This document shows positions 4,383-64,000 of a stretch of DNA of 64,000 nucleotides, piece after piece. This stretch comes from Octopus vulgaris (lineage: Eukaryota): positions 87,234,001 through 87,298,000 of the forward strand of contig OX597818.1 in NCBI GenBank assembly GCA_951406725.2, in the 5' to 3' direction. Made by a program: the position numbers and the translations under genes. The notes beneath the pieces are model-generated. The model did not search any database. It saw only the letters and a program-made list of their open reading frames with translations, and was not told the DNA's origin. Within the stretch, counting starts at the first letter, position 1; every line of letters begins with the position of its first letter.

Positions 4383-5714
4383 TTGTATGTAGAGACCGAT
4401 AGAATAAGAACTAGGTTTACAAAGAATAAGTCATGGGATCGATTTGCTCGACTAAAGGCGGTGCTCCAGCATGGCTGCAGTCAAATGACTGAAACAAATA
4501 ATAGAATAAAAGAATGTATATATATATATACACACACACACACCCTGATGTGTGTATATTCTTGGGTTTGTTGCTTGATAACTGTCTTGGTTTGTTTACA
4601 TTCATGTCACTTAGCAGTTCAGCAGAAGAATAAATAGAATACAAAAATGTAAACAGAAAAAAAAAATTGAAAACAATCAAAAAGTACTGTTGATAAATTT
4701 GTTCTGCTAAAAACCCTTTCAAAGCTGTGCCCAAGCATGGCCACAATCCAGTGACTGAAGCCAGTAAAAGAGAAGCTATAAGACATAAAGATGCAATTCA
4801 GTCCCACTGCATGGCACCTTGGGCAAGTGTCTTCTACTATAGCCTCGGGCCGACCAAAGCTTTGTGAGTGGATTTGGTAGACGGAAACTGAAAGAAGCCC
4901 GTCGTACATATGTATATATAAGTATGTATGTAAATATGTATATGTTTGTGTGTCTGTGTTTGTCTCCCCCCCCCCCCCACAACATCGCTTGACAACCGAT
5001 GCTGGTGTGTTTACGTCCCCGTAACTTAGCAGTTCAGCAAAAGAGACCAAAAAATAAGTACTAGGCTTACAAAGAATAAGTCCTGGGGTTGATTTGCTCG
5101 ACTAAAGGCGGTGCTCCAGCATGACCACAGTCAAATGACTGAGACAAGTAAAAGAGAGAGTAATTAAAGAAATGTTTCTACATCTCAAAGATATTCACCT
5201 TCTCTTTCTCTCTCTGTTTTTCCTGCTCTCCTGCTCCCTTCTCTAAACCGTCCTTCTTTTGACGCCAGCTGTGGCAATGGTGTAATTATCACCCAATTTG
5301 ATTCGCGTTGCCGTGCAGCTGACTGACTCCATCCTATGTTGGACACGACAAGGCTGGAATGTAGGTTGAAGAAACGATACAGCAATCAGACTCTATTGTG
5401 GCGTCGACAATTTCAAAGTTAACGCCGACAAGGCTGTCGTTACGCACATATATATATATATATATAAACGCGCACATTACGCATGCATCTCGCATGCATG
5501 CATGACAACGATGCCGTCACCAATAGATGTAGCTGTGTATTTCAATTGTTTGTCCTGTTCTGTGAATCGCTTTCTTTTCCACCAGTTCCCCCACCTCACC
5601 TCAACCCCTGTTGTTCTTGTTTTTCTGAGTGAGAGGGATGTTGTGGGGGATGTGGTGGAAGTGGATGCTTGGTGATGTTGGGGATATAGTGCGATATTAT
5701 TGGCAGTAATAGTG

Positions 5715-19984: not shown

Positions 19985-20470
19985 CAATATGAGTTAGGCA
20001 GATCCTGTGGCACTGAGGACACTGAAAGTGACCCCGAACAACAGTTGCAAGGGGTTGACGACAATGTCTCCTCCTCTCTTTATGCAGTTTCTTGCATTTG
20101 GTTTGAAAGTGCTCCACTCTAGCATCACAGATGGACTTCCATGTGTCCTGATTAATAACCAGGGCCTCCAACAGAATGTGAAGGACACTGCATAAAATGA
20201 GAGACTGCTTGAGGTTGATCTTGAAAGCCTACCTCCAGTCTCAATCTTGCTGAAAATTACCATTTTTGTGAGCTGGTTACTGGCATCCAAATCACATGCC
20301 CAACCCAGCAGGGATGATGACAAAAGATGCAGGCCACAATGCTGTAGATCTCAGCCTTCAGGTGGATATCAGTATGAGGCACCTTGTCCTGCCATGTGAG
20401 ACCAAAGATATTTTGGAGCAATCTGATATAGATAGAACACTTCAGTTGTCTGATCTGATGCCAATAATGG
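19985..20470 (-). mobile_element. Second RTE-clade LINE 3' remnant, frameshifted
   Basis: LQNIFGLTWQDKVPHT...WVGHVIWMP and terminal FQCPQCHRIC zinc-knuckle-like motif in different frames. Confidence 0.7.
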
Positions 20471-22964
20471 GTACATAGTATTATATATGTAACATCATCA
20501 TCATTCAGCATCCATTTTCCATGCTGGCATGGGTTGGACAGTTTGACAGGAGCTGACCAGTTGAAGGGCTGTTCCGGTTTCATGTCTTTTGGCATGGTTT
20601 TTACGGTTGCATGTCCTTCCTAATGCCAACCCCTTTATAGGATGTATTGAGTGCTTTTACACAGCACCAGCACAAATCAGCCTATAAGGTTAGGGATGCT
20701 CAGCTGAAGAAGGTGAGCCTGTACACAAGGGCAACCACACTTTTATTTAGCTTAACATGTTTTTTCAAACACAGTAAACTACCAGGAGTCTTGCTCCCCT
20801 GTCATCCCCTCTGTGAGCCCCAATGTCTGTAGATATTTGCCCTTTATTGTATTTTGTTATGAGCGTGAGTGATCTGATCTTGGAAAAATCGTCTTGCATG
20901 AAATTGGCCCATGGTGCTAAAAAGATTGGGGACTGCTGATGTAAAGCATTCCAGTGTTAAGATATCTTAATATTCCTAGCCCTAGACTGGATGTCTTGGA
21001 GAGCTTCAAGGCTCTTCTTGGCAACCTAAAGAGTTCCAAAGTCATAAATTTGTATTCTGGAGAACTGCAAACTTTTAAATAGGAAATCTATAAAATTTCC
21101 ATAGTCAAAGGATATAAGTTTGGAAAGTTCCAATATTTTAGATGAGTGTTCCACTGTCGTAAAGCAGAAAGTCTGTAAACTACATTTGTGTCGAGTAGGA
21201 GGCGAGAGAGAGAGAGCTGCTGCAATTAACCAAAAACTTTGCCAAAAACAAAGAGGAAATTGATTAAAAAAATTTACTACCGTTTTACCATTCCACTGTT
21301 CTGTATCTGTTCGTTTCTTAATCCATAGTGTTGCAGGATAAGTATTGATTGTGTGTGTTTGTGTGGGCCTCTGTGTGCATGGATACAAACACACACACAT
21401 AGAATGATGTATGATGTATGTGTGTGTGTGTGTGTACATGTATACTGCTGCAAAATAGCATTGATTATGTAAGTTATTACGTACACATACATGCATATTG
21501 ATATATATATATAGATATAAACAAATTTCATGTGTGTGTGTGTGTGTATGTATATATGTGTTTGTATGTATATATATATGTGTGTGTGTGTGTATGTATA
21601 TATATATATACACACACATATATACACTCACTCACACACACAAATTGCTGCAGATAACATTGATTGTGTGTGTGTGTGTGTGCATCCACATTAGCTGCAG
21701 AATAACTAGATATATATGCATATATTATATCTGTATTAATATATAATCAATGTGGATGTATACATGTTTGCATGTGTATGTACAGATGCACACACACACA
21801 TATAAGTCCAATATGTACACTCAGTTACATGTATAACTGCAACGCTATGTACCACACACATACACACATACTCTCTCTTTTTCTTTCTCTCTCTCTCTCT
21901 CACACACTCACACACGCTCTTATGGGTGTGTATATGGGTGTGCGTGCAGTAGCATTTGTCTTGGTTCAGCTGTCAAAGCAACTGCTGTGAATAAAGTTAT
22001 CCTATTTCAATATCACTGTTCAATATCTGTGGTATTGATACATTACTGATTGGCAATATTAGTTAAGTCAAGGGTATACCACCCAGTCCTGAGGATAAAG
22101 CTATTCTACTGAGAGCTGTGTATCAGTGCAAGCTATACCAGTAATATACTGTGGGCTTACAAAGAACTACTTTGGAATATCCGAAGTTAAGAAATCACAG
22201 CAGTGTTCTTGAAATGGATTAATTACATGTTCAGCTGCATAGTTGTACCAGTAATATTCTCAGGAGTGGTCTTTGGTAAATCCCATGGTAGATAATGAAA
22301 GCAGACCTGGAAGAGAACCAGAACTATAATGCAAGGCGTGGCTATAAGGTAAGAATCTTGCTTCCCAACCATATGGTCTTGGGTTCAGTACCACTGTGCA
22401 ACACCTAGGACACATATCTTTTATGGCCCCAGGCTGACCAAAGCCATGTGGGAAGATTTGGTAGATGGAAATATTGATTGAAGGACTGTACACTCATGAG
22501 GCCAGTTTCCTCGTTGCTGTGACGATTACATTCCCCACCTGGATAGGTTGCCAAGCTGTTGCAAGGTTACTCATTTCTACCAGGTGAGTGGAGGAGAGTA
22601 ATGTGAAATGAAGTGTTTTGCTCAGGAATACATCGTCCAGTCCAGGAATCGAAACCGCATTCTTACGGACTTGAGTGCAAGCACCCTATTTACTTAGCCA
22701 CTTATCTCCACAAATGGAAATATACTGTTGCATATATTTGTATGCGTGTGTGTGTGTACACCTTTGTCTAGACATCACATGATAATTGTAAACAAGTGTC
22801 ACTGTCATACAAGTGGTGTAGTTCATTTCCAGTTTTTCATGAAAACCATGTCTGGCCAAGGGAAATAAAACCTTACATGGAAACAGTTGAGTGTTGGTGT
22901 CAGGAAAGGCATCCAACTGTAGAAAATAAAAGGCTTCTTTATTAGCATTATTGTATGATTGTGG

Positions 22965-28021: not shown

Positions 28022-29491
28022 GTGAGTATATTTTCTAACCAGTCACCTATTTTCTCTTCATCTTTTTTATCATTTTTTTTTCCTACTTAAAATCTAGTTA
28101 TCATTTTCAATTCCAAATCTTTAGTGGTTGTTCTCTCCCTGACCCGCAGTTTGGGGTCTTAGGTCATGCATCTTTTGTGCTCCTACTCCATGCCTCCCTG
28201 ATGCTGTGTTCAGATACATGGTGCTAAGTCAAAACCTTTCAGCATAGGTTTTGGACTTCAGCCAGGGATGTCTAGTGCCACCTCTGCTTTTCATAATTTT
28301 TATAAACTACATTGACATTTACAGCTGTTGTTGTGGAACTGGTATCACATTCAGTGAGTGTAGGACCAGTCGGCTAATATTTGCAGATGCCTTCATTGGA
28401 CACTGCTTGTGAAGACCTGTTGAGGCAAGTGAAATCGAAATCAAATTCGATGACTGACATCTGTGCTAGTGGAGTACTAAGAGCACCATCCGAGCGTGAT
28501 TGTTGCCAGAGCAGCTAAGTGGCGTTCTTACCGGTGACATGTAAAAAGCACCATTCAAGCGTGATTGTTACCAGCGTAGCCTTACAAGCACTTATGCCAG
28601 TGACACGTAAAAAAAAAAAAAATCACGATTTTTTTTGTGGCCGTTGCCAGTACCGCGTGACTGGCCCTTGTGCCGGTGGCACGTAAAAGCATCCACTACA
28701 CACTTGGAGTGGTTGGCATTAGGAAGGGCATCCAGCTGTAAAAACTCTGCCAGATCAAGATTGGAGCTAGGTGCAGCCAACTGGTTTGCCAGTCTTCAGT
28801 CAAATCGTCCAACCCATGTTAGCATGGAAAGTGGACGTTAAACGATGATGATGATGAAGACATGGTTCTACTTGGCTCATTAGAATGTGATCTGAAGCTT
28901 GCACTGAATTGTTCTGCTGCCAAGGGATGCAAGGCAGAGATGAGAACGAGTGATGCGAAAACTGAAACCTAGGAGAAGACCAAGAATGGTAATATCCATA
29001 ATTGATCATGCTTGAGAATCCACCCACAAAGTTTAATGACAGTTATTTCCGATAGGACCCTATGGAGGAGGTGCCTGAGAACTCCACTCCCATGATCCTC
29101 CCAGGAATAGGGGACTAAAAGGATGGATAAATATGGAGCATCTAGTCACCACTTTTCACATTTTTTTACTTACTCCTTCGTTACTTTTTCCACTTTCATT
29201 TCTTGATTTAAAAAATAAACAACTTTAAGATTTAAAAAAATAAACAACTTTAGGAATGCAGGGTCTACATTTGTATTTTTTCCCCCCTTTTGCTGATTTT
29301 TTCCATTCTACCTCTTTTGTGTTTTTGATGGGTTTTTCACCCCCTTCTCTCCCCCACCTGCTGCAGTGGTTATTCTATCAATCTTACCTTATTCTCATTC
29401 ATTAACCTATCATATTCCTTCCACGACCTCTCAGCTCATTTTCTCATTCATCCGATAACCTTCCATCTTTTACCAAATTCTCTATTTCCAG

Positions 29492-29630
29492 AACGATCTG
29501 CTGCAGTGGTTAAAACTGCTGAATCTGGATTACTACCATGATACATTGCTAAGTCAGGGTTATACCACAATCGACCAGGTTACCGAGATTACTTGGGAAG
29601 ATCTTGAAGAGATTGGTATTAAACTCTTAG
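29492..29630 (+). CDS. CASKIN: Caskin-like exon, SAM2 (NDLLQWLKLLNLDYYHDTLLSQGYTTIDQVTEITWEDLEEIGIKLL-G)
   Basis: ttccag acceptor, TTAG|gtaagt donor phase 1; ITWEDLxEIGI motif continues as GHQKKI in next exon. Confidence 0.95.
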
Positions 29631-30254
29631 GTAAGTCTTTCGCCGTGGCGTCGCCGCCTTTGATTTCATTCTTTGTGTTTACAGATGTTTGGTGTTTGAT
29701 AGCTCCTGGTAAGATGTCTTGTCTTGTCTGGCCTGGATTCTCTCTGTCTCTCCGATTCTGCTTCTGTAACCATTTGAATAATTCTTGCTATTCCTGCTAT
29801 TTCCTGGTCTTGGTGCATGTATGCATATCCACATGTGAGCGGAAGTATATATCAATGCCAACGTGCTTACATAGCAATACCAACATGTACACACATACAG
29901 CAACACCAATTGCATACATGCTTCAATACCAAAATGCATGCACACACAAACGTGCATGTGCACACACACTCACACACACATAAACATGCCATAACTATAC
30001 TATGTGCATGCACACATACACACATCAACACCAATATGCACACAGTTATACTAATCCACACTGGAATACCAACACACACACAGACTGTAATACCAATACA
30101 GACAGTGATACGCACATACAGATGCATGCACACACACACACACACTGTAATATCAACACAAACATGCTCACCAACAAACTATATACATGTGATCCCACAT
30201 TCTTATACATACAAACACACACACACATATGTTCAACAACAAACTATATACACG

Positions 30255-30286
<32 letters not shown>

Positions 30287-31022
30287 TACACCATTTCCAC
30301 CACCACAACAATTCAAACAGAAATTCCTTCTTGTGACTTGTCAAAGTCGATGCTTAGAGAGGAAACTGACTGTCATTGTCTCTTGAGAATGTCCTTTGAT
30401 TGTAAGACTCAATTCTTGGAGAGATTTAACTCGCTGCAGGCATCACTTTACCATGACGTTAACAAAAGAGAAATCATGTTACAGAAGGATCTTAGCACCA
30501 GCCAACCCGCGCTTCAAACAAATGTCAATAGGCAGGTCAAGTGAGCCCAATGGCCTTAGTTTTCCAACAGTGCTGATATGTTACTCTAACTTGATATACA
30601 AGCGGGGTTGCTAAAAAGTTCCTGGCTTTGGGTAGAAGAAAATAAAGGAGGATCAGTTAACTATGGTTTCTTTCAACATATTCCCTTCACATCATCATCA
30701 TCATCTTCGTTTATCGTCCGCATTCCATGCTAGCATGGGTTGGATGGTCCAACTGGGGTCTGGGAAGCCAGAAGGCTGCACCAGGCCCAGTCTGATCTGG
30801 CAATGTTTCTACGGCTGGATGCCCTTCCTAACGCCAACCACTCCGTGAGTGTAGTGGGTGCTTTTTACGTGCCGATTCACACAATTATTGCAGTGGTCCT
30901 TCGTTTTTTCTAAGCCCTGTAAAAGAACTTTGAAGGTTAGGCCTCTAACCAAGCCTTTCATGGTACCCTTAAAACCAGGAACTTTCCAGTACCCCCGTGT
31001 ATGTGTGTGTACATACATACAT

Positions 31023-31056
<34 letters not shown>

Positions 31057-31062
<6 letters not shown>

Positions 31063-31265
31063 TGGGTGCTGAATAGTTTCAGGCTTTGGGTAAAAGAAAG
31101 TAGAGGAAGATCAGTTAATTATGATTTTATTCAGCATATTTAACACTTATTGCAGCGATCCTTCAGTTTTTTTAAGCCTTGTAAAAAGAACTCAGAATGG
31201 TTGGGCCCCCAAACAGACCTTTTGTGATACCCTTGAAGCCAAGAACTTTTCAGCACCCCCTTGTG
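31057..31265. mobile_element. Mariner-type MITE; second copy at about 30598-31000 interrupted by a SINE
   Basis: imperfect TIR CGAGGTGGGTGCTGAATAGTTTC / GAACTTTTCAGCACCCCCTTG; two local copies. Confidence 0.65.
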
Positions 31266-31777
31266 TAATACTACATGTGCTTTCATAGAATAACCCCCAT
31301 GTTATCCCAGAACAATATATCATGGGGCAATTTTCACCCCATTTAACCCTTTATCATTTAAAGCAGCCCATCAGGCTCAAATATTCTATTTGTTTTAGAT
31401 TTAAACTGGTCGTATCCAGCCTCTCACACCTACCCTACAATGTCATTCTAGAAACATACAATCATATCATCAAAATTTCAAAGCTGTGAATTAATGTATG
31501 ATTAATTCCGGCACGTAAAAAGCACCATTTGAACATGGTTGATGCCAGTGCCACCTGACTGGGCCCCCCGTACTAGTGGCACATAAAAAGTACCCACTAT
31601 ATTTTCGGAGTGGTTGGCATTAAGAAAGGGCATCCAGCTTTAGAAACCTTGCCAGATCAGATTGGAGCCTGGTACAGCCTCCTGGCTGGCCAGTCCTCGG
31701 CCAAACCGGCCAACCCATGCCAGTATGGAAAGCAGATATTAAACGATGATGATGATAAGTGTAAATAAATAGGCATT

Positions 31778-32158
31778 AGGCGCAGGAGTGGCTTTGCTAA
31801 CCAACTACATGGTTCTGGGTTCAGTCCCACTGCGTGGCATCTTGGGCAAGTGTCTTCTACTATAGCCTCGGGCCGACCAAAGCCTTGTGAGTGGATTTGG
31901 TAGATGGAAACTGAAAGAAGCCTGTCATATATATATATATATGTGTGTATATGTTTGTGTGTCTGTGTTTGTCCCTCTAGCATTGCTTGACAACCGATGC
32001 TGGTGTGTTTACGTCCCCGTCACTTAGCGGTTCGGCAAAAGAGACCGATAGAATAAGTACTGGACTTACAAAGAAATAAGTCCCGGAGACGATTTGCTCG
32101 ACTAAAGGCGGTGCTCCAGCATGGCCGCAGTCAAATGACTGAAACGAGTAAAAGAGAG
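31778..32158 (+). mobile_element. tRNA-derived SINE family A, representative copy; others near 1493-1880(-), 4795-5160, 8360-8660, 11381-11775, 12975-13335(-), 44005-44250, 57990-58335(-)
   Basis: pol III B-box-like GGTTCAGTCCC head, internal TA/TG microsatellite, conserved ...GGTGCTCCAGCATGGCCGCAGTCAAATGACTGAAAC tail in more than 10 copies. Confidence 0.85.
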
Positions 32159-32276
32159 ATAGTATTACGTTTAGCAGAATAATCTGAATGCTAAAAGGTT
32201 AAAGCGTTGTTTTTTTCTGTAACCAATGTTTCTGAAATAGCCACAACTGATTTTTTTTTCTTTCTTTTCATTTCAG

Positions 32277-33977
32277 GCCATCAGAAAAAGATCATCCTGG
32301 CCATCGACCGCCTAAAACGAATTATGGCTGGTACTAAGCGCTTGTCTTCTTTAGAGCAAAGGTCACCCTACATTGAGCCTCTCGAACCTCCTGCGATGAA
32401 TATGTCGGGCCAGTGGTCACTCGACACGGGTAGCAACAGTTCTTCGGACACTACCCTGACCTTGACTCGGCCTAAAAAATCGACATCCGGTGAAAGTTTG
32501 ACCGAAATGCACCCATTTCATCCATACCGGGAGAAAGAGGGCAGCAGTGGCGACCAAACACCCACCTCATCCAGTCCTGGCAATCTCCCTCCAGATTACG
32601 TAGCCATTCAAGTGAAACGCTCATTGTCAAACAACAGTTCGAGTGATATGTCTCCTATTGTCGAAAGCACGGACATGACTGGTCAGCCAATAACTTACCA
32701 ATCATTTCATATACCTTCTTCTAATAAGAGATGCTCTGATGTCATTGAGGAAAAATTCCCAGGTACCAACGGTCAGTTGATAATAGAGGACACCCTCAGT
32801 GATAATGTCACTCGTCCTTCGGCCACAGTCTCCCCTCGAGTCATGGTGAAACCAAAACCTGTAGCCAAGATCCCTGCTAAGTCTAAACAGCAAGGGCGTG
32901 AAATGTCCCCCGATTTATTGGACGAAAAACACAGTCGTGAGTTAGCTGTGGAAGCATTGAAGAGTTTCAACACAATGAAATCTTGTAGTCAAAGTCACGA
33001 GCATATTTATGATCAGCCTGTCGTTAATCTTCCTAAATCACCCAAACCACTGGTTTTACCAAAGTCTGTTAGTCTAAACAACAACACCTCCATCTCAACC
33101 GGCTGCGAACCATTAAGTCCCATGAAACCAGATGCTGACGACTACTATCCACCAATCGCGACAAAGCCAAAGAAGGTGCCACCCCCACCACCTCCGAAGC
33201 GAAGTAACTCAATGCGTGTAGAGGGACCGAAATACAACTTACCCAACCGACGCAGTGAACCGGCTACCCCTATCTGTATGGCTGACTCGTTGTCAAAATC
33301 ACTGCCCAACTCCACAACACACCACGAAGAATTTGCAAACTGCGTCAAAACTTTGTCAGAGCGTTTCGGCAAGAATATGGGCAATGCCGATGCCCAAGAC
33401 TCATCATCCAATGAAAGCGATGAAATGCCTCCTCCCCCTCCTCCACTTGCCATGGATATTATCACCCCAAGACTTCATAACTATGGCATTCCTTCCAAGG
33501 GAGGTCGACCCACTATGGATCTTTCCAGCAACAATCCACCTTCCAGGCTAAAAAAAGACACATGCCCCATCCTGAAAGAGAAACCAGCATTTTTGATGCA
33601 AAAATTTCCAATTAACGAGAAGATAATTGAGGATCCCCCAGCCCCTATGGCACTACCAACCTCCACTCTAGATAAGAGCATCCCAGAACAAGAAGAGTTT
33701 GTGGCAAAGCGAAAGGATTCTACATTGAGCGTGGAATCAAACAGTTCCAACTCGAGTGTGGAATCTAACACTTTGCCGTTCGCTAACGAAAACATCGGTA
33801 CGATAAAGCAGAAGAATTCTCCTGCGGCGCTGAAGCTAATTGAAGGACTCCAAGCAGATTTTGATTTGACAGACGTCGATCATGACAACATTGGTATTCG
33901 CTCCAACAGCACTTCACTCACAAGTAGCTCAATCGAAAGGACACATGCAAAATTAAACGATGATGCTAATGATGAAC
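32277..33977 (+). CDS. CASKIN: Caskin-like large exon: SAM2 end (GHQKKIILAIDRLK) plus Pro/Ser-rich region (PPPPPKRS, NTLPFANENIGTIKQK)
   Basis: tttcag acceptor, GAAC|gtaagt donor phase 1, lies within ORF 32207..34000; LPFAxExxxTIKQ motif recalled from caskins. Confidence 0.93.
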
Positions 33978-34664
33978 GTAAGTATTTTATGTCATCGTAA
34001 ACTGACCTGTAAAGGTTTTAGTTATGTCACTGCTTGTTCCATGTCAGTTAAGGGCCATCTGCAGCTTGCAGAAGAATGGCATACCTAACAGAAAATTATC
34101 TTATGCTGAACCATATCTCATGCTACTCAGTTCTCAGAAAAAGGTTGCCCATGCTTGTTCTACGTCCTATCATTCCCTGTAGCAAAGTAAGACACCAAAT
34201 GATTGCAAACAGACATATCTAACATAGGTTGAACCAAGTAGGTAATGTGGCTTAGACATGCAACCTTTCAGAAATAACCGTCAACTGTCCCTCTCAAATC
34301 TTACCCTACGAAACTTTAGATACTAGCTGTGAATATTCCAATTCGTTAGCTGTGTAAATGTGCCCTTTCTGTATATTTGCCCCCAAAGATTATATTAACC
34401 TTTTCATTACCATATTTTAAATGAAATAACAATGACTCTGTGTTTTAAATTAATTTTTGAAAATGATCAAGAATTTGAAAGGATTTAGTAAAACAATTTG
34501 AGAGGGTGCTTAGTGCAGTAGATTGGCAAAATTGTTACAGCACCAGACTATATTCCTTGCAGTATGTTTTGCAGCTCATTGTACACCATAACTTTAAATC
34601 TTACCAAAGTTAAATTAGCCTTTATTTTCTGTAGTTGATTAAGTAAAGTTCCAGTCTTATATCG

Positions 34665-47553: not shown

Positions 47554-47964
47554 TTAAATATTCTGGCCAGATAGATATGGCTAGTTTGAATTATTATTTA
47601 ACATGTATTGCCCATGCTGGCATGACATGACCATCTGATTTGGCATGGTTTCTACAGCTGGATGTCCTTAACACCAACCACTCCACAAATGGGTGCTTTT
47701 ACATGCCAGTTGCATGGCACCAGTATCTTCCATGGATATTTGTATTAGTCTTAGAGACAGATTAGTATAAAAAATATTCAGGATATTTAAGTGAGCTAAG
47801 AATCAAAGTGGATTTTAACTCATTTGCCACAGCACCAATGAGTAATGTCCTCCACTAACATACACAGATGCAATTTGAACCTGAGAGAGAGAGAGAGCAT
47901 AGGGATGCTGAAGAAATATCATTAAGCATTCTATACAATGCTCTGATAATTGCCATTTTGCCAC

Positions 47965-48024
47965 CCAAAAAAAAAAAAAAAAAAGCACAAAGACAAGTGT
48001 ACAAGTTCCCTCAAGGCATTTATT
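47965..48024 (-). terminator. RPL18 polyadenylation signal and downstream GU/U-rich element
   Basis: AATAAA on minus at 48019-48024, about 100 nt past the stop, followed by TTGTCTTTGTGC and a T-run. Confidence 0.7.
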
Positions 48025-48120
48025 GTTGTCCTTTGATGGACACTCCTCAAAAAGGAATAAAAAACAAAAGCAACTGAATACTTTAGAGTTATTTTACTTT
48101 GGAAACAAACCAATACAGAA

Positions 48121-48767: not shown

Positions 48768-48891
48768 CCTGTAGCAGGGAGGTATGTCTGCCCTTGGGTG
48801 CTATCATTGCCAACTGGTCAAAAGTCAAAATCTCACCCTCGCTCTTAAGAACTCTAGCGCGAGCTTGGTCTGTCATCTTCAGAGCACAGAT
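48768..48891 (-). CDS. RPL18: RPL18 exon ([42 protein letters not shown])
   Basis: tttccag acceptor, CAGG|gtaagt donor; [13 protein letters not shown] motif. Confidence 0.97.
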
Positions 48892-49187
48892 CTGGAAAGA
48901 CAAAGCAGGCACTCAGTACAAGATAATATTACCATAGAACTTTATTTGAACAGCTGTAAACGAGAAAGTAGCAGCTAAATATCACACAAGTCACAAACCA
49001 CCATTAAAAAAGAAATCATGTATAAAAACTGCAGGCAACCCAGACTACTTTTTTAAGCATGAGATTGCTCATGCCAAAAAGGCTTGAAACCACAGTAGCA
49101 TAAAAAGCCTAAAAATTCAAAGGTGTTTGACAGAAAGCTGAAAGGGTTGTAAGTGATAGTTCAGTTGGTGCAACTATCCCATACAAG

Positions 49188-49505
49188 AGACAGATTAGTA
49201 TAAAAAATATTCAGGATATTCAAGTGAGCTAAGAATCAAAGTAGATTTTATCTCATTTGCCACAGCACCAATGAGTAATGTCCTCCACCAACATACACAT
49301 TGGTGCACACAGATGCAATTTGAACCTGAGAGAGAGAGAGAGAGAGAGAGCATAGGGATGCTGAAGAAATAGCATTAAGCATTCTATACAATGCTCTGAT
49401 AATTGCCATTCTGCCATCTGGAGGAAAAAAAAAAAAAAAAAAAAGCACAAAGACAAGTGTGCAAGTTCCCTCAAGGCATTTATTGTTGTCCTTTGATGAA
49501 CACTC
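49188..49505 (-). repeat. Intronic duplicate of the RPL18 3' end/downstream flank (47755-48045)
   Basis: about 300 bp of high identity in the same orientation, including AATAAA at 49479-49484 and the U-rich downstream element. Confidence 0.92.
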
Positions 49506-49941
49506 AATAACCCAGCTGTAATCTCAATATTTAAACCGGCCACACCTGGATCAAATATTCTACCTGTTTTATCAAACCAGCTGGATTTAGCCTCATACTG
49601 ACCTAATAATGTCATTCTAAACACAAACAACCACAGCATCGAAATCCTGAAGCTATTAAATAATGCACGATTGATTGAAAACAATGTAATAAAAAGTATA
49701 ACAGTTGCCAAAATTATCTGAATCCTGAAGAGGTAAACTTAATGAACATACACAACATTATAAAATTTAAGGCTTCTGTTATAAACAGTAAAACTGAATG
49801 GAACAGATAAATACCAGAGAAGCCCTAAATATAATGTATTACCTCAATGTAATAACCATTTGTGCAGCATACCGATGCACAAATAACTTCACAACAAACA
49901 AATTTCCTTGCTCTAAAAATTAAGACCAATGCAAACATACT

Positions 49942-50016
49942 TGACCACTCAGTGGATTGGCTAGGTACAATCACAAACAATCAGAGCCACGGAAGAAGTT
50001 TTCATCATAGTGGTCA
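49942..50016 (-). ncRNA. Box C/D snoRNA family 1, copy 1
   Basis: minus strand TGACCAC-T-ATGATGA(C)...CTGA(D')...GTGATTG(C')-TACCTAGCCAATCCA-CTGA(D)-GTGGTCA; 7-bp terminal stem; intronic and sense to RPL18. Confidence 0.9.
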
Positions 50017-50678
50017 GTCAAATCAGTTAGTTGAAGTTAATAAAGAGGAACACGTAACAACACTGGCAAATGGGCTATGGTGAGAAGGGCTTAAATCTTG
50101 CAGGTGGTCAAAGAATTATTATACTCATTACTGTAAACCAAAGTCACACAGATGTGGATAGATTGCATTTAGATTGAGGAGCATATAATGCACAAATGAG
50201 TATATTTTACCCCTTTGTTACAATATCCATGTTGAATTACAGTAGCTTTTTCAACATGATTATGTATAGCTGGTAGAAAGTAGAAAAATTTGTCAAGTTC
50301 CTGTCCAAAAATAATTGGAACAAGGGATCTAACAAAAAATGGCACATCATAACTTCGACCGATGGAAAATTCTATTACTAAGACCCTTGGTAGTCACTTG
50401 ACCTCGTACAAATAATCCAGTGCTTCTTGATATATTATATTATGCCCCGGATAAAACCATCAGGCTGCCAAAAAAAATTCATATAAGACAGACCTAACAA
50501 ACATTACAAAAGAGATAGAAATCCCAGATACATTTAACAATAATTAAACAGACATAAGATACAAGAAGCTCTAAATAGATTTTACTACCTCATAGTTTAC
50601 CAGCCTACAACTGACATAATCACTCCTGCACTATATCAAAAAGACATAAGATATTTCCCTACCATGTGTATATAAATT

Positions 50679-50753
50679 TGACCACTCAGTGGATTGGCTA
50701 GATACAATCACAAACAATCAGAGCCACGGAAGAAGTTTTCATCATAGTGGTCA
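50679..50753 (-). ncRNA. Box C/D snoRNA family 1, copy 2 (guide variant TATCTAGCCAATCCA)
   Basis: same boxes and stem as copy 1. Confidence 0.88.
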
Positions 50754-51127
50754 GTCAGATCAGTTAGTTGAAGTTGGAATTAATATTATACTCATTACTG
50801 TAAATAAAAGTCACATGGATAAATTGCATTTATATTGAGGAGCATACAATGCACAAATGAGTATATTTGGCCCCCCTTGTTGCAATATCCTGGTTGAATT
50901 AAAGTACCTTTTTCATATAGTTTAAGGAAAATTTGTCAAGATCCCGTCCAAAAATAATTGGAACAAGGGGTTGAAAATTCCTTTTGAATATATCTTTTAG
51001 ATTTGCAGTATATAAACATCAAAGATGCCTAACAGGTGTCTTTAATAATTTCTGACGTCCATACATTGCTAATAAAGAGGAATGAATATCTCCTCTGCCA
51101 ATATCTCCAAGCCAGCCTTTCCTTTAA

Positions 51128-51348
51128 CCCTTTAGTGTTCGCATTATTCTGCCAAAATTAATGCTTCTTCATCTACATTGTTTTGAACTAATCAGGCATT
51201 ATCTTGTAGCTATGAGATTTTGATGAGGTAGCTGTTAATTTTAAAAACGATATTGTAAGGTTGGTGTGAGAGACCAGATAGGGCTAGTTTGAACATAAAA
51301 CAGGTAGAATATTTTTGGCCGGATATGGCCGGTTTAAATGCTAAAGGG
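51128..51348. mobile_element. 221-bp TTAA-specific (piggyBac-type) MITE
   Basis: CCCTTTAG...CTAAAGGG with TTAA TSD; empty site visible in the sister repeat unit near 52810; relatives at about 31345, 44894, 55090, 57947 and 59300. Confidence 0.92.
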
Positions 51349-51618
51349 TTAAGCAAACAAAAAATGGCACATTATAACTTGGACTAATGGAAGATTCAAT
51401 TATAAAAACTGTTGGCAGTCATTTGACTTCGTACAAATAACCCTGTACTCCTAGATATGTCTCAGATAAAGCCATCAGGCCATCAATAAAATCTACCCAA
51501 AACAATTCATTTAAATTATTTTATTACCTCACAGTTTATCAGCCTATAACTAATGTAACAACCGTTCTTATATCAAAAGAAAGATACAAGATATTTCCCT
51601 ACCATGTGTATATAAATT

Positions 51619-51693
51619 TGACCACTCAGTGGATTGGCTAGGTACAATCACAAACAATCAGAGCCACGGAAGAAGTTTTCATCATAGTGGTCA
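51619..51693 (-). ncRNA. Box C/D snoRNA family 1, copy 3
   Basis: identical to copy 1. Confidence 0.88.
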
Positions 51694-52380
51694 GTCAGAT
51701 CAGTTAGTTGAAGTTAATAAAGAGGAACACGTAACAACACTGGCAAATGGGCTATGGTGAGAAGGGCTTAAATCTTGCAGGTGGTCAAGGAATTATTATA
51801 CTCATTACTGTAAACTAAAGTCACACAGATGGGGATAGATTGCATTTAGATTGAGGAGCATATAATGCACAAATGAGTATATTTGACCCCTTTGTTACAA
51901 TATCCATGTTGAATTACAGTAGCTTTTTCAACATGATTATGTAAAGCTGGTAGAAAGTAGAAAAATTTGTCAAGTTCCTGTCCAAAAATAATTGGAACAA
52001 GGGATCTAACAAAAAATGGCACATCATAACTTAGACCGATGGAAAATTAAATTATTAAGACCCTTGGTAGTTACTTGACCTCGTACAAATAATCCAGTGC
52101 TTCTTGATATATTGTATTATGCCCCGGATAAAGCCATCAGGCTGTCAAAAAATCTACCAAAAAAAAATTCATATAAGACATTAGACCTAACAAACATTAC
52201 AAAAGAGATAGAAATCCCAGATACATTTTACTGATTAACAATAATTAAACAGACATAAGATACAAGAAGCTCTAAATAGATTTTATTACCTCATAGTTTA
52301 CCAGCCTACAACTGACATAACAATCACTCCTGCACTATATCAAAAAGACAAGATATTTCCCTACCATGTATATATAAATT

Positions 52381-52455
52381 TGACCACTCAGTGGATTGGC
52401 TAGATACAATCACAAACAATCAGAGCCACGGAAGAAGTTTTCATCATAGTGGTCA
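52381..52455 (-). ncRNA. Box C/D snoRNA family 1, copy 4
   Basis: identical to copy 2. Confidence 0.88.
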
Positions 52456-53078
52456 GTCAGATCAGTTAGTTGAAGTTGGAATTAATATTATACTCATTAC
52501 TGTAAATTAAAGCCACATGGATAAATTGCATTTAGATTGAGGAGCATACAATGCACAAATGAGTATATTTGGCCCCCTTGTTGCAATATCCTGGTTGAAT
52601 TAAAGTACCTTTTTCATATAGTTTGTAGAAAGAGTAGAAGGAAAATTTGTCAAGATCCTGTCCAAAAATAATTGGAACAAGGGATTGAAAATTCCTTTTG
52701 AATATATCTATTAGATCTGCAGTATATAAACATCAAAGATGCCTAACAGGTGTCTTTAATAATTTCTGACGTCCATACATTGCCAATATCTCCAAGCCAG
52801 CCTTTCCTTTAAGCAAACAAAAAATGGCATATTATAACTTGGACTGATGGAAGATTCAATTATAAAAACTGTTGGCAGTCATTTGACCTCGTACAAATAA
52901 CCCTGTACTCCTAGATATGTCTCAGATAAAGCCATCAGGCCATCAATAAAATCTACCCAAAACAATTCATTTAAATTATTTTATTACCTCACAGTTTATC
53001 AGCCTATAACTAATGTAACAACCGTTCTTATATCAAAAGAAAGATACAAGATATTTCCCTACCATGTGTATATAAATT

Positions 53079-53153
53079 TGACCACTCAGTGGATTGGCTA
53101 GGTACAATCACAAACAATCAGAGCCACGGAAGAAGTTTTCATCATAGTGGTCA
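53079..53153 (-). ncRNA. Box C/D snoRNA family 1, copy 5
   Basis: identical to copy 1. Confidence 0.88.
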
Positions 53154-53824
53154 GTCAGATCAGTTAGTTGAAGTTAATAAAGAGGAACACGTAACAACAC
53201 TGGCAAATGGGCTATGGTGAGAAGGGCTTAAATCTTGCAGGTGGTCAAGGAATTATTATACTCATTACTGTAAACTAAAGTCACACAGATGGGGATAGAT
53301 TGCATTTAGATTGAGGAGCATATAATGCACAAATGAGTATATTTGACCCCTTTGTTACAATATCCATGTTGAATTACAGTAGCTTTTTCAACATGATTAT
53401 GTAAAGCTGGTAGAAAGTAGAAAAATTTGTCAAGTTCCTGTCCAAAAATAATTGGAACAAGGGATCTAACAAAAATTGGCACATCATAATTTGGACCGAT
53501 GGAAAATTAAATTATTAAGACCCTTGGCAGTTACTTGACCTCGTACAAATAATCCAGTGCTTCTTGATATATTATATTATGCCCCGGATAAAACCATCAG
53601 GCTGTCAAAAAAAATTCATATAAGACAGACCTAACAAACATTACAAAAGAGATAGAAATCCCAGATACATTTTACTGATTAACAATAATTAAACAGACAT
53701 AAGATACAAGAAGCTCTAAATAGATTTTATTACCTCATAGTTTACCAGCCTACAACTGACATAACAATCACTCCTGCACTATATCAAAAAGACAAGATAT
53801 TTCCCTACCATGTGTATATAAATT

Positions 53825-53899
53825 TGACCACTCAGTGGATTGGCTAGATACAATCACAAACAATCAGAGCCACGGAAGAAGTTTTCATCATAGTGGTCA
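53825..53899 (-). ncRNA. Box C/D snoRNA family 1, copy 6
   Basis: identical to copy 2. Confidence 0.88.
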
Positions 53900-54479
53900 G
53901 TCAGATCAGTTAGTTGAAGTTAAAGGGGAACAAGTAACAACACTGGCAAATGAGCTATGGAGAGAAGGACTTAAATCTTGCAGGTGGTCAAGGAATTAAT
54001 ATTATACTCATTACTGTAAACCTAAGTCACACAGATGGTGGCTAGATTCCATTTATAATACACAAGTGAATAATATTTGGCCCTTGTACTATGTAATGTT
54101 TGTAGCATTTGTAGAAGAATGTCATGTCTTAAATATTAAGAACCGCTCCACAAACAATAGGAATAAGCGACTGAAAATCCCTTTGAGTAAATCACTGTGA
54201 AAGAGCAAACCTAGTACTAACTGTTGGTAACCACCATTGCTAAGTCTCACCAATTCTCTTGGCAGACAAAAATCTGCCCCAACAAAATTCATATAATCCA
54301 TGCCAGCATGAAAAAGAAAAAGAGATGCAAACCCTAACAAAAGAGACAGGGGAAATCTCAAATATATTTTAATGACTAATAGCAAAATTGAACAAATATA
54401 ATGACCATTTCCACACTATATCAAAACAAAGATGTAGAATCTTCCTGGCTATAAAAAATAAGTCTTGTGCACACAAATT

Positions 54480-54550
54480 TGACCACTCAGTGGATTGGCT
54501 AGATACAATCACAAACAATCTGACAGATGAAGTTTTCATCATAGTGGTCA
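54480..54550 (-). ncRNA. Box C/D snoRNA family 1, copy 7 (D' box changed to CAGA, D' guide diverged)
   Basis: C box, D box, D guide and terminal stem intact. Confidence 0.82.
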
Positions 54551-55387
54551 GAGCATTGCGCTTACAATCAGGAGATAGTGAGTTCAATTCCCAGACTGGA
54601 CTGTGTATTATGTTCTTGAGCAAAACCCTTTATTCTACGTCGCTCCAGTTCACTCAGCTGTAGAAACGAGTTGTGACATAACTGGCGCCAAGCTTTTCCG
54701 GACTTTGCTTCTCCCTTAGATAACATCACTGTCATGGAGAGAAGAGGCTGGTATGCATTGGTGACTGCTGATCTTCCATAAATGACGTTGCCCAGGCATC
54801 TGCCTCGGAGGATAATATTCGAAGTGCAATCGTATGGTCATTCATTACTGAAGGGTTGGTTTTTTTTTTACCCATTACCCCTTTATATGTGTATTAGAAC
54901 AAGGTTTTAAAATAGTTTGTCTACCAACCATGTGGTCTTGGGTTCAGTCCACTGATGCACCATCACGAAGTGTCTACTATAGTCCAGAGTTAAGCAAAGT
55001 CTCCTGAGTGAGATTGGTAGACAGAAACTGAACAAAGTGTGTGTGCATGTGCCATCCAACCCTTACAAACATGAAAAAGTGGATATCAACCCTTTAGCAT
55101 TCAGATTATTCAGTCATGTTATGCCCATTTATTCACATTGTTTTGAATTAATCAGGGATTATCTTGTAGCTTTGAGATTTTCATAGTGGTGACTGCTTAT
55201 TTTTAAGACATTGTAGGATAGGTGTGAGAAGCTGGACATGACAAACATAAAACATTGAATATTTTCGCCAGATATAGCTGGTTTGAGCCCAAAATGGTTA
55301 AGGGAGGAGGTTGATGTGTTTTGTGAAGTTAGTTTCTCCTACATGCATCAGCCCCACTGCATGCCCTCTTTATTGTTAAAGGTTACC

Positions 55388-55700
55388 TCAAATGTTCAAT
55401 ATGTAAATCATTATTTGCAATACAGTTACAGCATCGTTCAATAGTTGAATCAGTAAGTTTTTTTTTTTACACAGCTCTGGTGTTATATCTTGCCATGTAT
55501 TTACGATGCTCTGTTCCAGATCATTGAAAGTTTTTGGTCTAACACTGAACACCCGATTGTTTTTTTTAGCACTCCCCAGAGAAAAGAGTGCAGAGGACTG
55601 AGGCCCGGGGACTTTGCAGGCCATTCCATGGATCCGTGGTAGCCCATCCACCTACCCGGACAATATTCATCAAGTAATAAATTTAATAGGAATAGGTCAC
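55388..55700 (-). mobile_element. Tc1/mariner-superfamily transposase remnant, frameshifted
   Basis: PGRWMG...EWPAKSPGLSPLHSFLWGVLK resembles the WPxRSPDLNPLDFFLWG motif. Confidence 0.8.
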
Positions 55701-56336
55701 TTCTGAGCCACTCTGTGTGTGTATGTATATATGTGTGCCTTTGTGTTTGTATCCCACCACTGCTTGTCAACCATTGCTGGTGTGTTTATGTATTCAAAGA
55801 GGTGACCCAGCATGGACACAGTTTAATGAATGGAGAAAAAAAACCCCAAAAAAACTTGCAAACTTCCCATCCACAACTTGGTATGTTTTGTTGTAAAGAC
55901 TCAGTAGTTCTCTTGTAAAACTAACAAATTAGAGAAATGCTGTGGAAAAATACATCATCAATATTCTCAAGTATTGCTAATTCAGTTCGATTCGAAACAA
56001 ATTTTAGAATTACAACTCAATAAAAATAACAGCCAAATCTGCTTCAAATCAAGAATATATTAAACAAAACCCAAACAGGTCTCTTGTATTCAAGACTAAG
56101 CAATGAACTTTTTCATTCAAAACAAGTCCGTAACACTGAGCCCTTCATTGTCTTAATTCTGTTGAAATATAGTGCTTGTTTCAATTAATTTACTATGTTA
56201 ATGAAAATTGAATAAATCAACTGGTGTTTGGAACAAAAATCAACATGGGAACTTTCAATTTCGATCACTGTCAAAGAGGATGCTTGTATTAGTCTTAGAC
56301 ATGTCAGTATATAAACAGCCAAAAATAAATATTAAC

Positions 56337-56413
56337 TGACCACTCAGTGGATTGGCTAGATGCAAATCACTAAACAATCAGACCCACGGAAGTAGTTATC
56401 ATCATAGTGGTCA
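56337..56413 (-). ncRNA. Box C/D snoRNA family 1, copy 8 (most diverged)
   Basis: boxes, stem and ATCTAGCCAATCCA guide conserved while flanks are unrelated. Confidence 0.88.
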
Positions 56414-57768
56414 CTATAAGCAGTGCTTGTATTAATTTTTAAGATCCTCACATTAAAACTCGCATTCATATAGAGAATTCACGATTGTTGTACCTTTACT
56501 TGCAAGGCTACAACACTAGATAGAGAAAAGTCAAAAACTGCAATCCTTACCTAGGTTGTTGGACCCAATATCCTACCTATTAATCATTAGAATTTTTCCA
56601 TCTTTGAAAAGAAAACTCCATTCAGCATCATTATCATTTAACCCCTATTGTCCATGCTGGCATGGGCTGGACGGTATGAAGAGAGCTGGTGAGCTGAGGG
56701 GCAGAACCAAACTCCAGTGTGATTTAGCATTGTTCTTATGGCTGGAAGCCCTCCCTAACACCATTAATTTTGACAATTCTCTAAAGATTGTTGTTATATA
56801 ACCCACTAAATATAAAATATATTAAAGGCCACAAAAGATTCTGAAGTTCTTCACTGATGTTTAAAGAATCTCTTGGAAAAACTTACAATAAAAACCCAAT
56901 TTGTTTAAAATTTGCTAGATACACCCAAAAAGTAGAGATGGTACACTTACAATGCAAGTTCTGATGGTCATCACAAGAATCAGTATTTCTTTCTCGTTGG
57001 AGACACTTCCACTCCCTGAACCTGACAATAGCAACTAAGTATGGTACCAAGAGAAACAGCTGATTGCTAAATGTTGCTAGATCCTGTGTATATGTATGAC
57101 TTGAATGGCACTGCCAGTTATGAGGCTTCCAGTTGATCTGATCAAAGGAACAGCCTGCTTGCGAAAGTAACATGCATCTGACTAAGCACTCCACACAAAA
57201 GCAGTTCTCATGGGAGATTCAGCACGACACAGTGTGACAAGGCCGGCCCTTTGAAATACAGGTACTACTCATTTTTGGCAGCTGAGTGGATTGGAGCAAC
57301 GTGAAATAAAGTGTCTTGCTCAAGAACGATGCATCACTGGGAATTCAACACATGACCACATGATTATGAACTGAATACTATAACCACTAAGCCACACGCA
57401 CATAATACCTTTGTTAAGTTTGTAATAATGGAAGAGCAACAGGTCCAACACCAAATATATATCCAGGTAAGTGTTGGTTGCTCAATATCTACACTAAAGA
57501 ATACAAAGGGTCACAACTAACGAAATCTGAGCAACAACCCACAAATAAAATTAAGCGGTATTTTAGGCTGGGACAGAGGTCATTCTTAGTACTTTCATTT
57601 CATCAACAGAAAAAAACAGTTTGGCTCAGCTGCAAATGAAACAATCATACAAGCAACTGACATTTACAGTAAATTCACTGAAGTTAGGAAACAAAGAAAA
57701 CAAGAGACATCATCCATAAAAGAAGAGAGAAATAGTACAACATTACAAACACCAAAGAGAAAACTTAC

Positions 57769-57864
57769 CTTCAACTTGGGCACCATGTGCAGACGAATAT
57801 CATCGGTGACTGTAGAAACAACCACAGCTATCTTATCCTCGTCTTGTCCCTTCATGTGTCGTAC
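57769..57864 (-). CDS. RPL18: RPL18 exon (VRHMKGQDEDKIAVVVSTVTDDIRLHMVPKLK)
   Basis: gcgcag acceptor, AAG|gtaagt donor; KIAVVVxTVTDDxR motif. Confidence 0.97.
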
Positions 57865-58815: not shown

Positions 58816-58923
58816 AATACGCGATAGGGGAACTGGTGGTCTGTTGCTTCTGCTCATGCAGAGACGCTTCAGAATAATCTTGTTGAACTTGGAGTTAGTC
58901 CTTCGGGCCAAAAAGCGGTAAAG
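58816..58923 (-). CDS. RPL18: 60S ribosomal protein L18 (eL18) exon ([36 protein letters not shown])
   Basis: tttacag acceptor and ATT|gtaag donor on minus; unmistakable eL18 peptide; upstream exon(s) outside window. Confidence 0.97.
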
Positions 58924-61580: not shown

Positions 61581-61657
61581 AGTGCCTCCATCAGTTGGGT
61601 GATCCTGAAAGGTCATCACAAAAGATAATCAGAATTCTTCTTCCTCACTGAGGCACT
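61581..61657 (-). ncRNA. Box C/D snoRNA family 2, copy a
   Basis: minus strand AGTGCCTC-A-GTGAGGA(C)...CTGA(D')...GTGATGA(C')-CCTTTCAGGATCACCCAA-CTGA(D)-TG-GAGGCACT; intronic and sense to RPL18. Confidence 0.85.
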
Positions 61658-62589: not shown

Positions 62590-62662
62590 GTGTCTCCATC
62601 AGTTGGGTGATCCTGACTAGTCATCATAAAAGATCAGAATTCTTTCTTCCTCATTGAGACAC
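62590..62662 (-). ncRNA. Box C/D snoRNA family 2, copy b
   Basis: GTGTCTC/GAGACAC stem, ATGAGGA, CTGA, ATGATGA, TCAGGATCACCCAA-CTGA. Confidence 0.85.
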
Positions 62663-62695
62663 TACTATTTTAATTTAAACTCTAGAACCAGTTAA

Positions 62696-63748: not shown

Positions 63749-63824
63749 GTGTCTCCATCAGTTGGGTGATCCTGACTAGTCATCATAAAAGATGATCAGA
63801 ATTCTTTCTTCCTCATTGAGACAC
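63749..63824 (-). ncRNA. Box C/D snoRNA family 2, copy c
   Basis: as copy b; part of a roughly 1.2-kb duplication. Confidence 0.85.
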
Positions 63825-64000
63825 TACTATTCTAATTTAAACCCTAGAACCAGTTAACCATTTCATTATCAACCTGGCTGAAACCGGCTCTGGCTCTGTA
63901 GTACAAATGTCTTGTTTTCAAAATCTTCCACCAAACCTTAGTCACAATTTATGTTCCTAACACTAGCTGAATGATAACTAAGTTGTTTTACTAAATTCTT

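Follow-up and report, generated by a model that had tools for sequence, protein, structure and literature searches.

The stretch analyzed here comprises 64,000 nucleotides (nt) of the Octopus vulgaris genome (contig OX597818.1 of assembly GCA_951406725.2, forward-strand positions 87,234,001 to 87,298,000; hereafter the window). The ribosomal protein gene RPL18 lies on its minus strand, and a single intron of this gene, intron 4, carries eight copies of a snoRNA (small nucleolar RNA) of the box C/D class (Table 1). The flanking exons scored as the Pfam family Ribosomal_L18 (PF17135) in three of three cases. RNA data took the form of contigs from four studies (runs), in which RNA ends are not resolvable and rare forms are dropped. 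Contigs of three of the four runs contained a joint, 48891-57769, that skips 8877 nt with CT..AC ends at a depth of 1466-25010, and the fourth run yielded matching loose ends. The main mRNA therefore loses all eight copies as a single intron, as an earlier note made from the sequence alone had supposed, and the RPL18 array is an intronic snoRNA cluster, with at least two snoRNAs within one intron of the main mRNA.

A generic scan for C/D elements across the whole window recovered the eight described in that note, together with two unrelated single C/D matches. All eight are on the minus strand, sense to RPL18, and are 71-77 nt long. Six of them are of two types, A and B, and the other two were designated c7 and c8. 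Box C (ATGATGA), box D (CTGA), and a terminal stem of 7 base pairs (bp) were present in 8 of 8 copies, whereas the internal pair, consisting of a CTGA D' box and a TGAT-containing C' box, was found in seven, the D' box of c7 being CAGA; the claim of a full set of boxes in every copy thus holds for C, D, and the stem but not for D'. Spacing between C/D copies in the clusters of this genome was 0.6-1.8 kb, with up to eight copies per intron. Same-type spacers of the RPL18 array were 97.6-99.0% alike, with insertions and deletions, and each repeat unit was distinct from the rest, the closest being the A2B2/A3B3 pair (99% alike in the assembly sequence). The flanks specific to A1, B1, c7, and c8 and the B-A spacer free of a short interspersed element (SINE) were covered by RNA contigs from the four studies. 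Given that all units differ and that contigs cover copy-specific flanks, an assembly expansion of one to three copies, the artifact raised in the earlier note, is excluded; at least six copies are secure and eight are likely. Every A/B copy is preceded, 10-15 nt on its 5' side, by an ACTAAC that resembles a branch point (50017-50032 at A1), with the next AG inside the snoRNA.

Table 1 Features of the RPL18 locus and of related loci, in window coordinates unless otherwise indicated
Feature	Position	Strand	Remarks
RPL18 coding exon 3' of host intron	48768..48891	-	RNA joints and Pfam
RPL18 host intron (8877 nt)	48892..57768	-	RNA contig joint 48891-57769
RPL18 coding exon 5' of host intron	57769..57864	-	RNA joints and Pfam
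RPL18 coding exon separating both snoRNA-bearing introns	58816..58923	-	RNA joints and Pfam
Copy A1, box C/D snoRNA	49942..50016	-	3'-most; 1050 nt from acceptor
Copy B1, box C/D snoRNA	50679..50753	-
Copy A2, box C/D snoRNA	51619..51693	-
Copy B2, box C/D snoRNA	52381..52455	-
Copy A3, box C/D snoRNA	53079..53153	-
Copy B3, box C/D snoRNA	53825..53899	-
Copy c7, box C/D snoRNA	54480..54550	-	71 nt; D guide present, D' guide lost
Copy c8, box C/D snoRNA	56337..56413	-	77 nt; 5'-most; both guides present
Interspersed repeat (SINE-like) insertion	51126..51350		marks B1-A2 spacer; ends approximate
Weak candidate noncoding micro-exon after A1	49843..49912	-	ends at TGAG/GTAAT donor-like motif; use putative
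Homologous candidate micro-exons	50589-50630, 51528-51566, 52290-52334, 52988-53026, 53734-53778	-	from sequence; use putative
Second C/D-like family, copy 1	61582..61657	-	RPL18 intron 2; ends approximate
Second C/D-like family, copy 2	62590..62663	-	RPL18 intron 2; ends approximate
Second C/D-like family, copy 3	63749..63825	-	RPL18 intron 2; ends approximate
Second C/D-like family, copies 4 and 5	about 64790, 66150 (extended coordinates, past window)		RPL18 intron 2
RPL4 array	L030:6562-L031:1771	gene strand	five SNORD18 in one intron; four above Rfam gathering score
snoRNA-SINE chimeric retro-insertions	L014:5129-5470; L015 about 4500-4910		sequence match to array RNA

Comparison of the copies indicated that in each of the four old lineages, namely A, B, c7, and c8, the body is conserved relative to its flanks. 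The A and B bodies differ at 1 of 75 nt, compared with 11% in the spacers (binomial p of 0.001), in agreement with the divergence that had been noticed at first sight; corresponding tests of body versus flank gave p values of 0.0002 for B versus c7 and of 8e-6, with an assumed flank rate of 25%, for B versus c8. Overall, copy bodies were 92-100% alike, and the c7 and c8 flanks were 65-79% alike, with an aligner baseline of 70% for unrelated sequence. Substitutions among the copies avoid the boxes, the stem, and the D guide. These tests support purifying selection on the RNA body, as the earlier note had suggested on the grounds that c7 and c8 keep boxes, stem, and D guide. That description stands for C, D, the stem, and the D guide, and fails for c7 at the D' side, where the box reads CAGA and the guide is lost.

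A genome search with the array RNA returned 10 matches, two of which are dispersed. Both dispersed copies start 3-6 nt before box C and end 4-5 nt after box D, where an A tract and a SINE follow; one lies within a target-site duplication that spans 13 nt or more. This end pattern, together with the A tract and the target-site duplication, fits retroposition of a trimmed RNA. The D' region of both is of the A/B type, that is, of source copies that have c7 and c8 upstream, and the two share one base change found in none of the eight array copies. Conserved bodies together with retrocopies bearing mature boundaries are indirect evidence that makes a trimmed mature snoRNA very likely. Two considerations temper this picture: gene conversion could mimic selection, and one retrocopy has a 5' end that overlaps the target-site duplication and may be a truncation.

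Predicted targets were sought in the octopus ribosomal RNA (rRNA) itself. The octopus ribosomal DNA was located via its 5.8S gene; a short 28S pattern gave no matches because the rRNA differs there. The D' guide pairs with the octopus 28S rRNA over 11 bp (10 Watson-Crick pairs and one GU pair) with an A as the target, and the D guide pairs over 9 bp with a U as the target, the +5 rule being obeyed in both cases. Neither guide had a match in the octopus U2 or U6 RNA that was better than that in 28S. In c8 one pair of the D' duplex is missing near D' and another is added distally, leaving 10 bp and the same target A. Shuffled guides equaled the real pairing in 3.4% (D', p of 0.034) and 4.1% (D, p of 0.041) of 5000 trials, with a joint probability of about 0.0014 if the two are independent; taken singly, each guide is thus only marginally significant, which speaks against the assignment. 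The ACCT/ATCT difference between A and B, which had been taken for a guide single-nucleotide polymorphism, falls outside both predicted duplexes.

As counted by hand on the RF02543 alignment, the D' target corresponds to position 1254 and the D target to position 1948. We take the loop around position 1254 to be that of helix 43 in the GTPase centre. Two sites first considered as the targets, Um2837 of SNORD34/snR62 and Am2363 of SNORD76, were dropped because RF02543 positions 1948 and 1254 fall elsewhere. With an offset of +2, which fits three listed sites or anchors, position 1254 equals Am1252 of tomato 25S rRNA, a listed methylation site (PMC11542601 Table 2, section 6). By this hand count, the D' target A is likely the equivalent of tomato Am1252; in contrast to that plant site, the octopus guide has no Rfam family match and comes with a D target that is unlisted. 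Neither the D' nor the D site appears in the excerpted human list (PMC11550049) or among the 61 fly sites excerpted from PMC11014333 (section 19), whose cross-species site table may bear on mapping elsewhere. Among the lists compared, the D' site is given for neither human, yeast, nor fly, and the D target (model position 1948) for neither human, fly, nor plant, the latter being a further point against the assignment. The Rfam search that the earlier note had proposed as a check was run with the array RNA and gave no match at gathering score, the best being snoZ196 with 27.4 bits against a threshold of 55. Boxes, stem, and guides that obey the +5 rule on the octopus 28S rRNA nevertheless support a genuine C/D snoRNA, and we classify the array RNA as a predicted double-guide member of the box C/D class, outside the named Rfam families, that is expected to direct 28S methylation.

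To place the array in context, 17 further gene regions found by Pfam were scanned for C/D RNAs. Pfam and known peptide motifs are the basis for naming the genes and ordering the exons at these loci. H/ACA and degenerate RNAs escape the scan, and five more candidates came from Rfam. Credible C/D RNAs on the gene strand were present in 5 of the 17 regions, and same-intron homologous arrays in four. The C/D scan gave no credible candidate, single doubtful matches being dropped, in the remaining 12 (RPL3, RPS3, RPL5, RPSA, RPL17, RPL13A, two Nop-domain genes, three L7Ae genes, and one L13-family gene), whereas a Nop-domain gene on contig C1 carries two single C/D RNAs. In RPL4, an acceptor-like motif lies about 40 nt downstream of four of the SNORD18 copies; RPL4 is the SNORD18 host in vertebrates also. 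One RPS8 intron, the ends of which are joined in a retrocopy, contains three identical copies and one diverged copy, and the next intron contains two copies and one decayed copy alongside two other guides. RPS12 has a same-intron array of three plus one copies, and RPL7A has two plus two copies, with a SNORD36 in the second intron. Further single candidates clustered in RPL7A (L052:2253-3467 and L053:3088-3159) are SNORD103-like, SNORD53/92-like, SNORA50-like, and SNORD36, and an array of a repeat of about 178 nt lies between two U24-like copies of the same gene.

RPL18 itself carries a second C/D-like family, with five copies, in intron 2, where a loose contig end shows an exon 2-3 junction spanning the array. 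Box C of this family has a variant form, RTGAGGA. When the D element was aligned by hand with the 18S rRNA 5' end, 12 of 13 positions matched, the mismatch falling exactly at +5, and no clean target was found in rRNA, U2, or U6; the D element resembles box A of U3. The earlier note had read the amplification as a dosage event for the RPL18 array RNA. Since arrays also occur in RPL18 intron 2, RPL4, RPS8, RPS12, and RPL7A, the amplification is no special dosage event at the RPL18 array; as judged from these sequences, snoRNA amplification characterizes this genome.

The limit of one C/D snoRNA per intron in animals is ascribed to exonucleases, which halt at the outermost small nucleolar ribonucleoproteins (snoRNPs). 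Plain trimming of a lariat with eight copies would be expected to yield a single RNA of 6.5 kb with c8 and A1 at its ends, similar to the mammalian long noncoding RNAs with snoRNA ends (sno-lncRNAs; PMC11028025). The earlier note had argued that eight snoRNAs per intron require extra splicing or an endonuclease. More than plain trimming is indeed required if all copies are released, but a third route, in which one copy assembles per lariat, was overlooked. Our tentative preference, held at somewhat less than even confidence, is that the RPL18 copies are freed singly, an endonuclease cutting the spacers and exonucleases then trimming the ends; this reading is favored over its rivals because it fits the gaps that lack splice signals, the selection on internal copies, and the retrocopies. 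A snoRNP is predicted to assemble on each copy, aided by the 7-bp terminal stem. The whole intron would be spliced out, the spacers would be cut endonucleolytically, possibly by an EndoU-type nuclease, and exonucleases would trim to the snoRNP ends. The released RNA would then guide 2'-O-methylation at two 28S sites. The array may grow by local unequal crossing-over, with growth tolerated or mildly favored because the endonucleolytic pathway would lift the limit of one per intron. An EndoU (PF09412) gene is present in the genome, the spacers of the RPL18 array contain 34-39% U, and XendoU releases intronic snoRNAs in Xenopus (PMC10557570). In fly, H/ACA RNAs occur in intronic clusters but C/D RNAs do not, according to the excerpt of PMC3089462.

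Several observations count against endonucleolytic release. The spacers contain no long hairpin (the longest helix is 10-13 bp, with z from +0.6 to -2.6), and RNase III-type release is unsupported for this reason. A donor-like motif, TGAG/GTAAT, follows six of six A/B copies at about 98-106 nt, even A1 with its otherwise diverged flank, and 315 minor contig joints are hidden beneath repeat noise. The motif would suit hidden splicing: minor or transient isoforms would make use of weak 39-70 nt micro-exons, or of recursive sites of zero length, between the copies and would be removed by nonsense-mediated decay or leave no trace in the mRNA, giving one snoRNA per lariat, an explanation that we consider rather unlikely. 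On a generic splice-site matrix with untrained weights, the motif scored 2.1 (-0.1 for B1), compared with 1.7-8.0 for four true RPL18 donors, but it is absent after c7 and c8. Array acceptors scored -0.3 to 1.6, below all five true RPL18 acceptors (3.0-10.5), and acceptor-donor pairs did not exceed the intron background (p of 0.13-0.33). Splice-like signals showed a mild enrichment behind array copies across 16 flank types chosen by hand (Fisher p of 0.0009, or 0.025 minus the strongest), the search window and the representatives having been picked after the sequences were viewed. The threshold for a strong pair was not reached in any of the seven gaps of the RPL18 array and was reached in 6 of 29 gaps over all arrays. 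Exon-like sites numbered 10 in 54 kb of array introns and one in 16 kb of controls, too few to separate the two. Contigs cross the candidate sites unspliced at A1, A3, c7, and c8, though contigs drop rare forms. In favor of hidden splicing, other introns have very strong sites between different snoRNAs, namely a zero-length acceptor-donor site (8.5 + 8.8) in RPS8 intron 4 and an exon-like pair of 95-125 nt between U24-like and U36-like copies in RPL7A, and an acceptor-donor pair is present in three of the four gaps of RPL18 intron 2. Precedents for such splicing are Candida, whose snoRNA clusters undergo recursive and nested splicing (PMC5033589), the SNORD49A/B host (PMC4233243), and fly mfl, in which each copy of the DmSnR60 cluster has its own intron (PMC1821038).

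A different account requires no new step. If snoRNP assembly is rare far from the branch point and unassembled copies are degraded, extra copies would simply raise the yield; this seems improbable, as does, to the same degree, its corollary that one assembled copy gives one mature RNA per lariat and two give a long RNA with snoRNA ends. The RPL18 copies lie 1050-7445 nt from the acceptor, compared with an optimum of about 70 nt for splicing-coupled assembly (PMC1821038), and two snoRNAs per intron yield sno-lncRNAs in mammals (PMC11028025). Such assembly-limited trimming would account, without an enzyme, for selection on all copies and for retrocopies of mature size, but it would be wasteful where different single-copy guides share an intron, as in RPS8 intron 4 and RPL7A, and its yield drops when two copies assemble. 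Least probable, in our judgment, is a passenger model, in which one or two copies work and most were carried along by recent tandem duplication, likeness reflecting gene conversion and a recent origin. Such an origin does hold for the six A/B copies, as their same-type spacers indicate, c7 has lost its D' guide, and the genome contains many local tandem repeats, including U2 and U6. However, the A, B, c7, and c8 lineages retain boxes, stem, and D guide in flanks near the baseline for unrelated sequence, differences spare functional columns, and the retrocopies derive from A/B-type RNA.

Release may proceed by different mechanisms at different loci. In RPS8 intron 4, the zero-length site (minus strand, G000:C4:100412328; L027 ~2328) is strong and lies 75 nt downstream of one snoRNA, and another snoRNA is followed by an exon-like site of 3 nt (minus strand, G000:C4:100411374; L027 ~1374). 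Both sites may serve recursive splicing, in this case between the intronic snoRNAs of an animal. With more reserve than for the RPL18 array alone, we suggest that the rule of one C/D snoRNA per intron may have been lost throughout this genome through a general splicing-independent cutting, with recursive sites at some older clusters and with guides amplifying freely in ribosomal protein genes, including one for a methylation in the presumed helix 43 loop that is unmapped in human, yeast, and fly.

Intronic clusters, tandem C/D arrays, and cis-duplication of snoRNAs to neighboring introns (PMC3412847) are each already known. In rice intronic clusters and Drosophila H/ACA clusters, a single intron of a protein-coding host likewise contains several snoRNAs, which are often isoforms (PMC3089462; PMC11028025 section 3); in Drosophila, however, the C/D class is found at one per intron (PMC3089462), whereas the octopus clusters consist of C/D copies. 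SNORD115/116, SNORD113/114, and rat Bsr resemble the octopus array in being tandem C/D genes with unequal recombination, homogenization, and subfamilies, but these are orphan RNAs, one per repeated intron of noncoding hosts (PMC11028025), whereas the octopus RNAs are rRNA guides in a single intron of a ribosomal protein gene. For a repeated intron-exon layout of the SNORD115 type, the RPL18 array offers only the weak candidate sites, with contigs unspliced and minor joints hidden. The four tandem double-guide C/D isoforms DmSnR60 a-d also target 28S rRNA from a ribosome-related host, mfl, but each has its own intron and lies about 70 nt from the 3' splice site (PMC1821038), whereas no strong sites separate the octopus copies. 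In mammalian sno-lncRNAs and the SNORD49A/B host, two snoRNAs share an intron and splicing sets the outcome (PMC11028025, PMC4233243); the RNAs there are two different or paired ones with a documented long snoRNA-ended product, and those of octopus form arrays known from sequence. Exons of zero or a few nucleotides separate the snoRNAs of Candida clusters, as the RPS8 intron 4 sites suggest for octopus, but the fungal hosts are noncoding (PMC5033589) and the RPL18 intron 4 array has no such strong site. Searches of full-text literature, with most subscription papers outside their scope, found neither homologous C/D arrays of rRNA guides in single introns of animal ribosomal protein genes nor a paper on cephalopod or mollusc snoRNA arrays, and the excerpts of PMC6984369, PMC4394429, and PMC13321053 contain nothing that contradicts the novelty of single-intron C/D arrays.

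Conserved arrays of three to eight copies within single introns of several ribosomal protein genes imply that this animal cuts such introns, splices them invisibly, or routinely makes long RNAs with snoRNA ends; each of the three would add to what is known of snoRNA biogenesis. Because the copies carry diagnostic bases, the question of release is directly testable. The array RNA also predicts two 28S methylations, one of them in a factor-binding centre; the ribosome of the group was recently reported to be structurally unusual, with no mention of snoRNAs or methylation in the excerpt (PMC13321053).

Other features of the window and genome were recorded. Upstream of c8, an exon-like acceptor-donor pair on the minus strand (56550-56693; 116-143 nt, donor score of 6.0) is a possible RPL18 poison exon. 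A segment of about 300 nt in the RPL18 3' region (47753-48045) has an 88% duplicate in intron 4 (49186-49505). A single C/D-like match with a 7-bp stem (20442-20504, minus strand) is antisense to the neighboring gene, has no copies in the extended window, and is probably due to chance. Two equal-scoring RPS3 exon matches (G000:C13:73917351 and 75213623), 1.3 Mb apart and in opposite orientation, represent a recent or an assembly duplicate. Exons of a convergent neighboring gene, with SAM-domain-like peptides and an open frame of 601 codons, occupy 29459-33997 on the plus strand.

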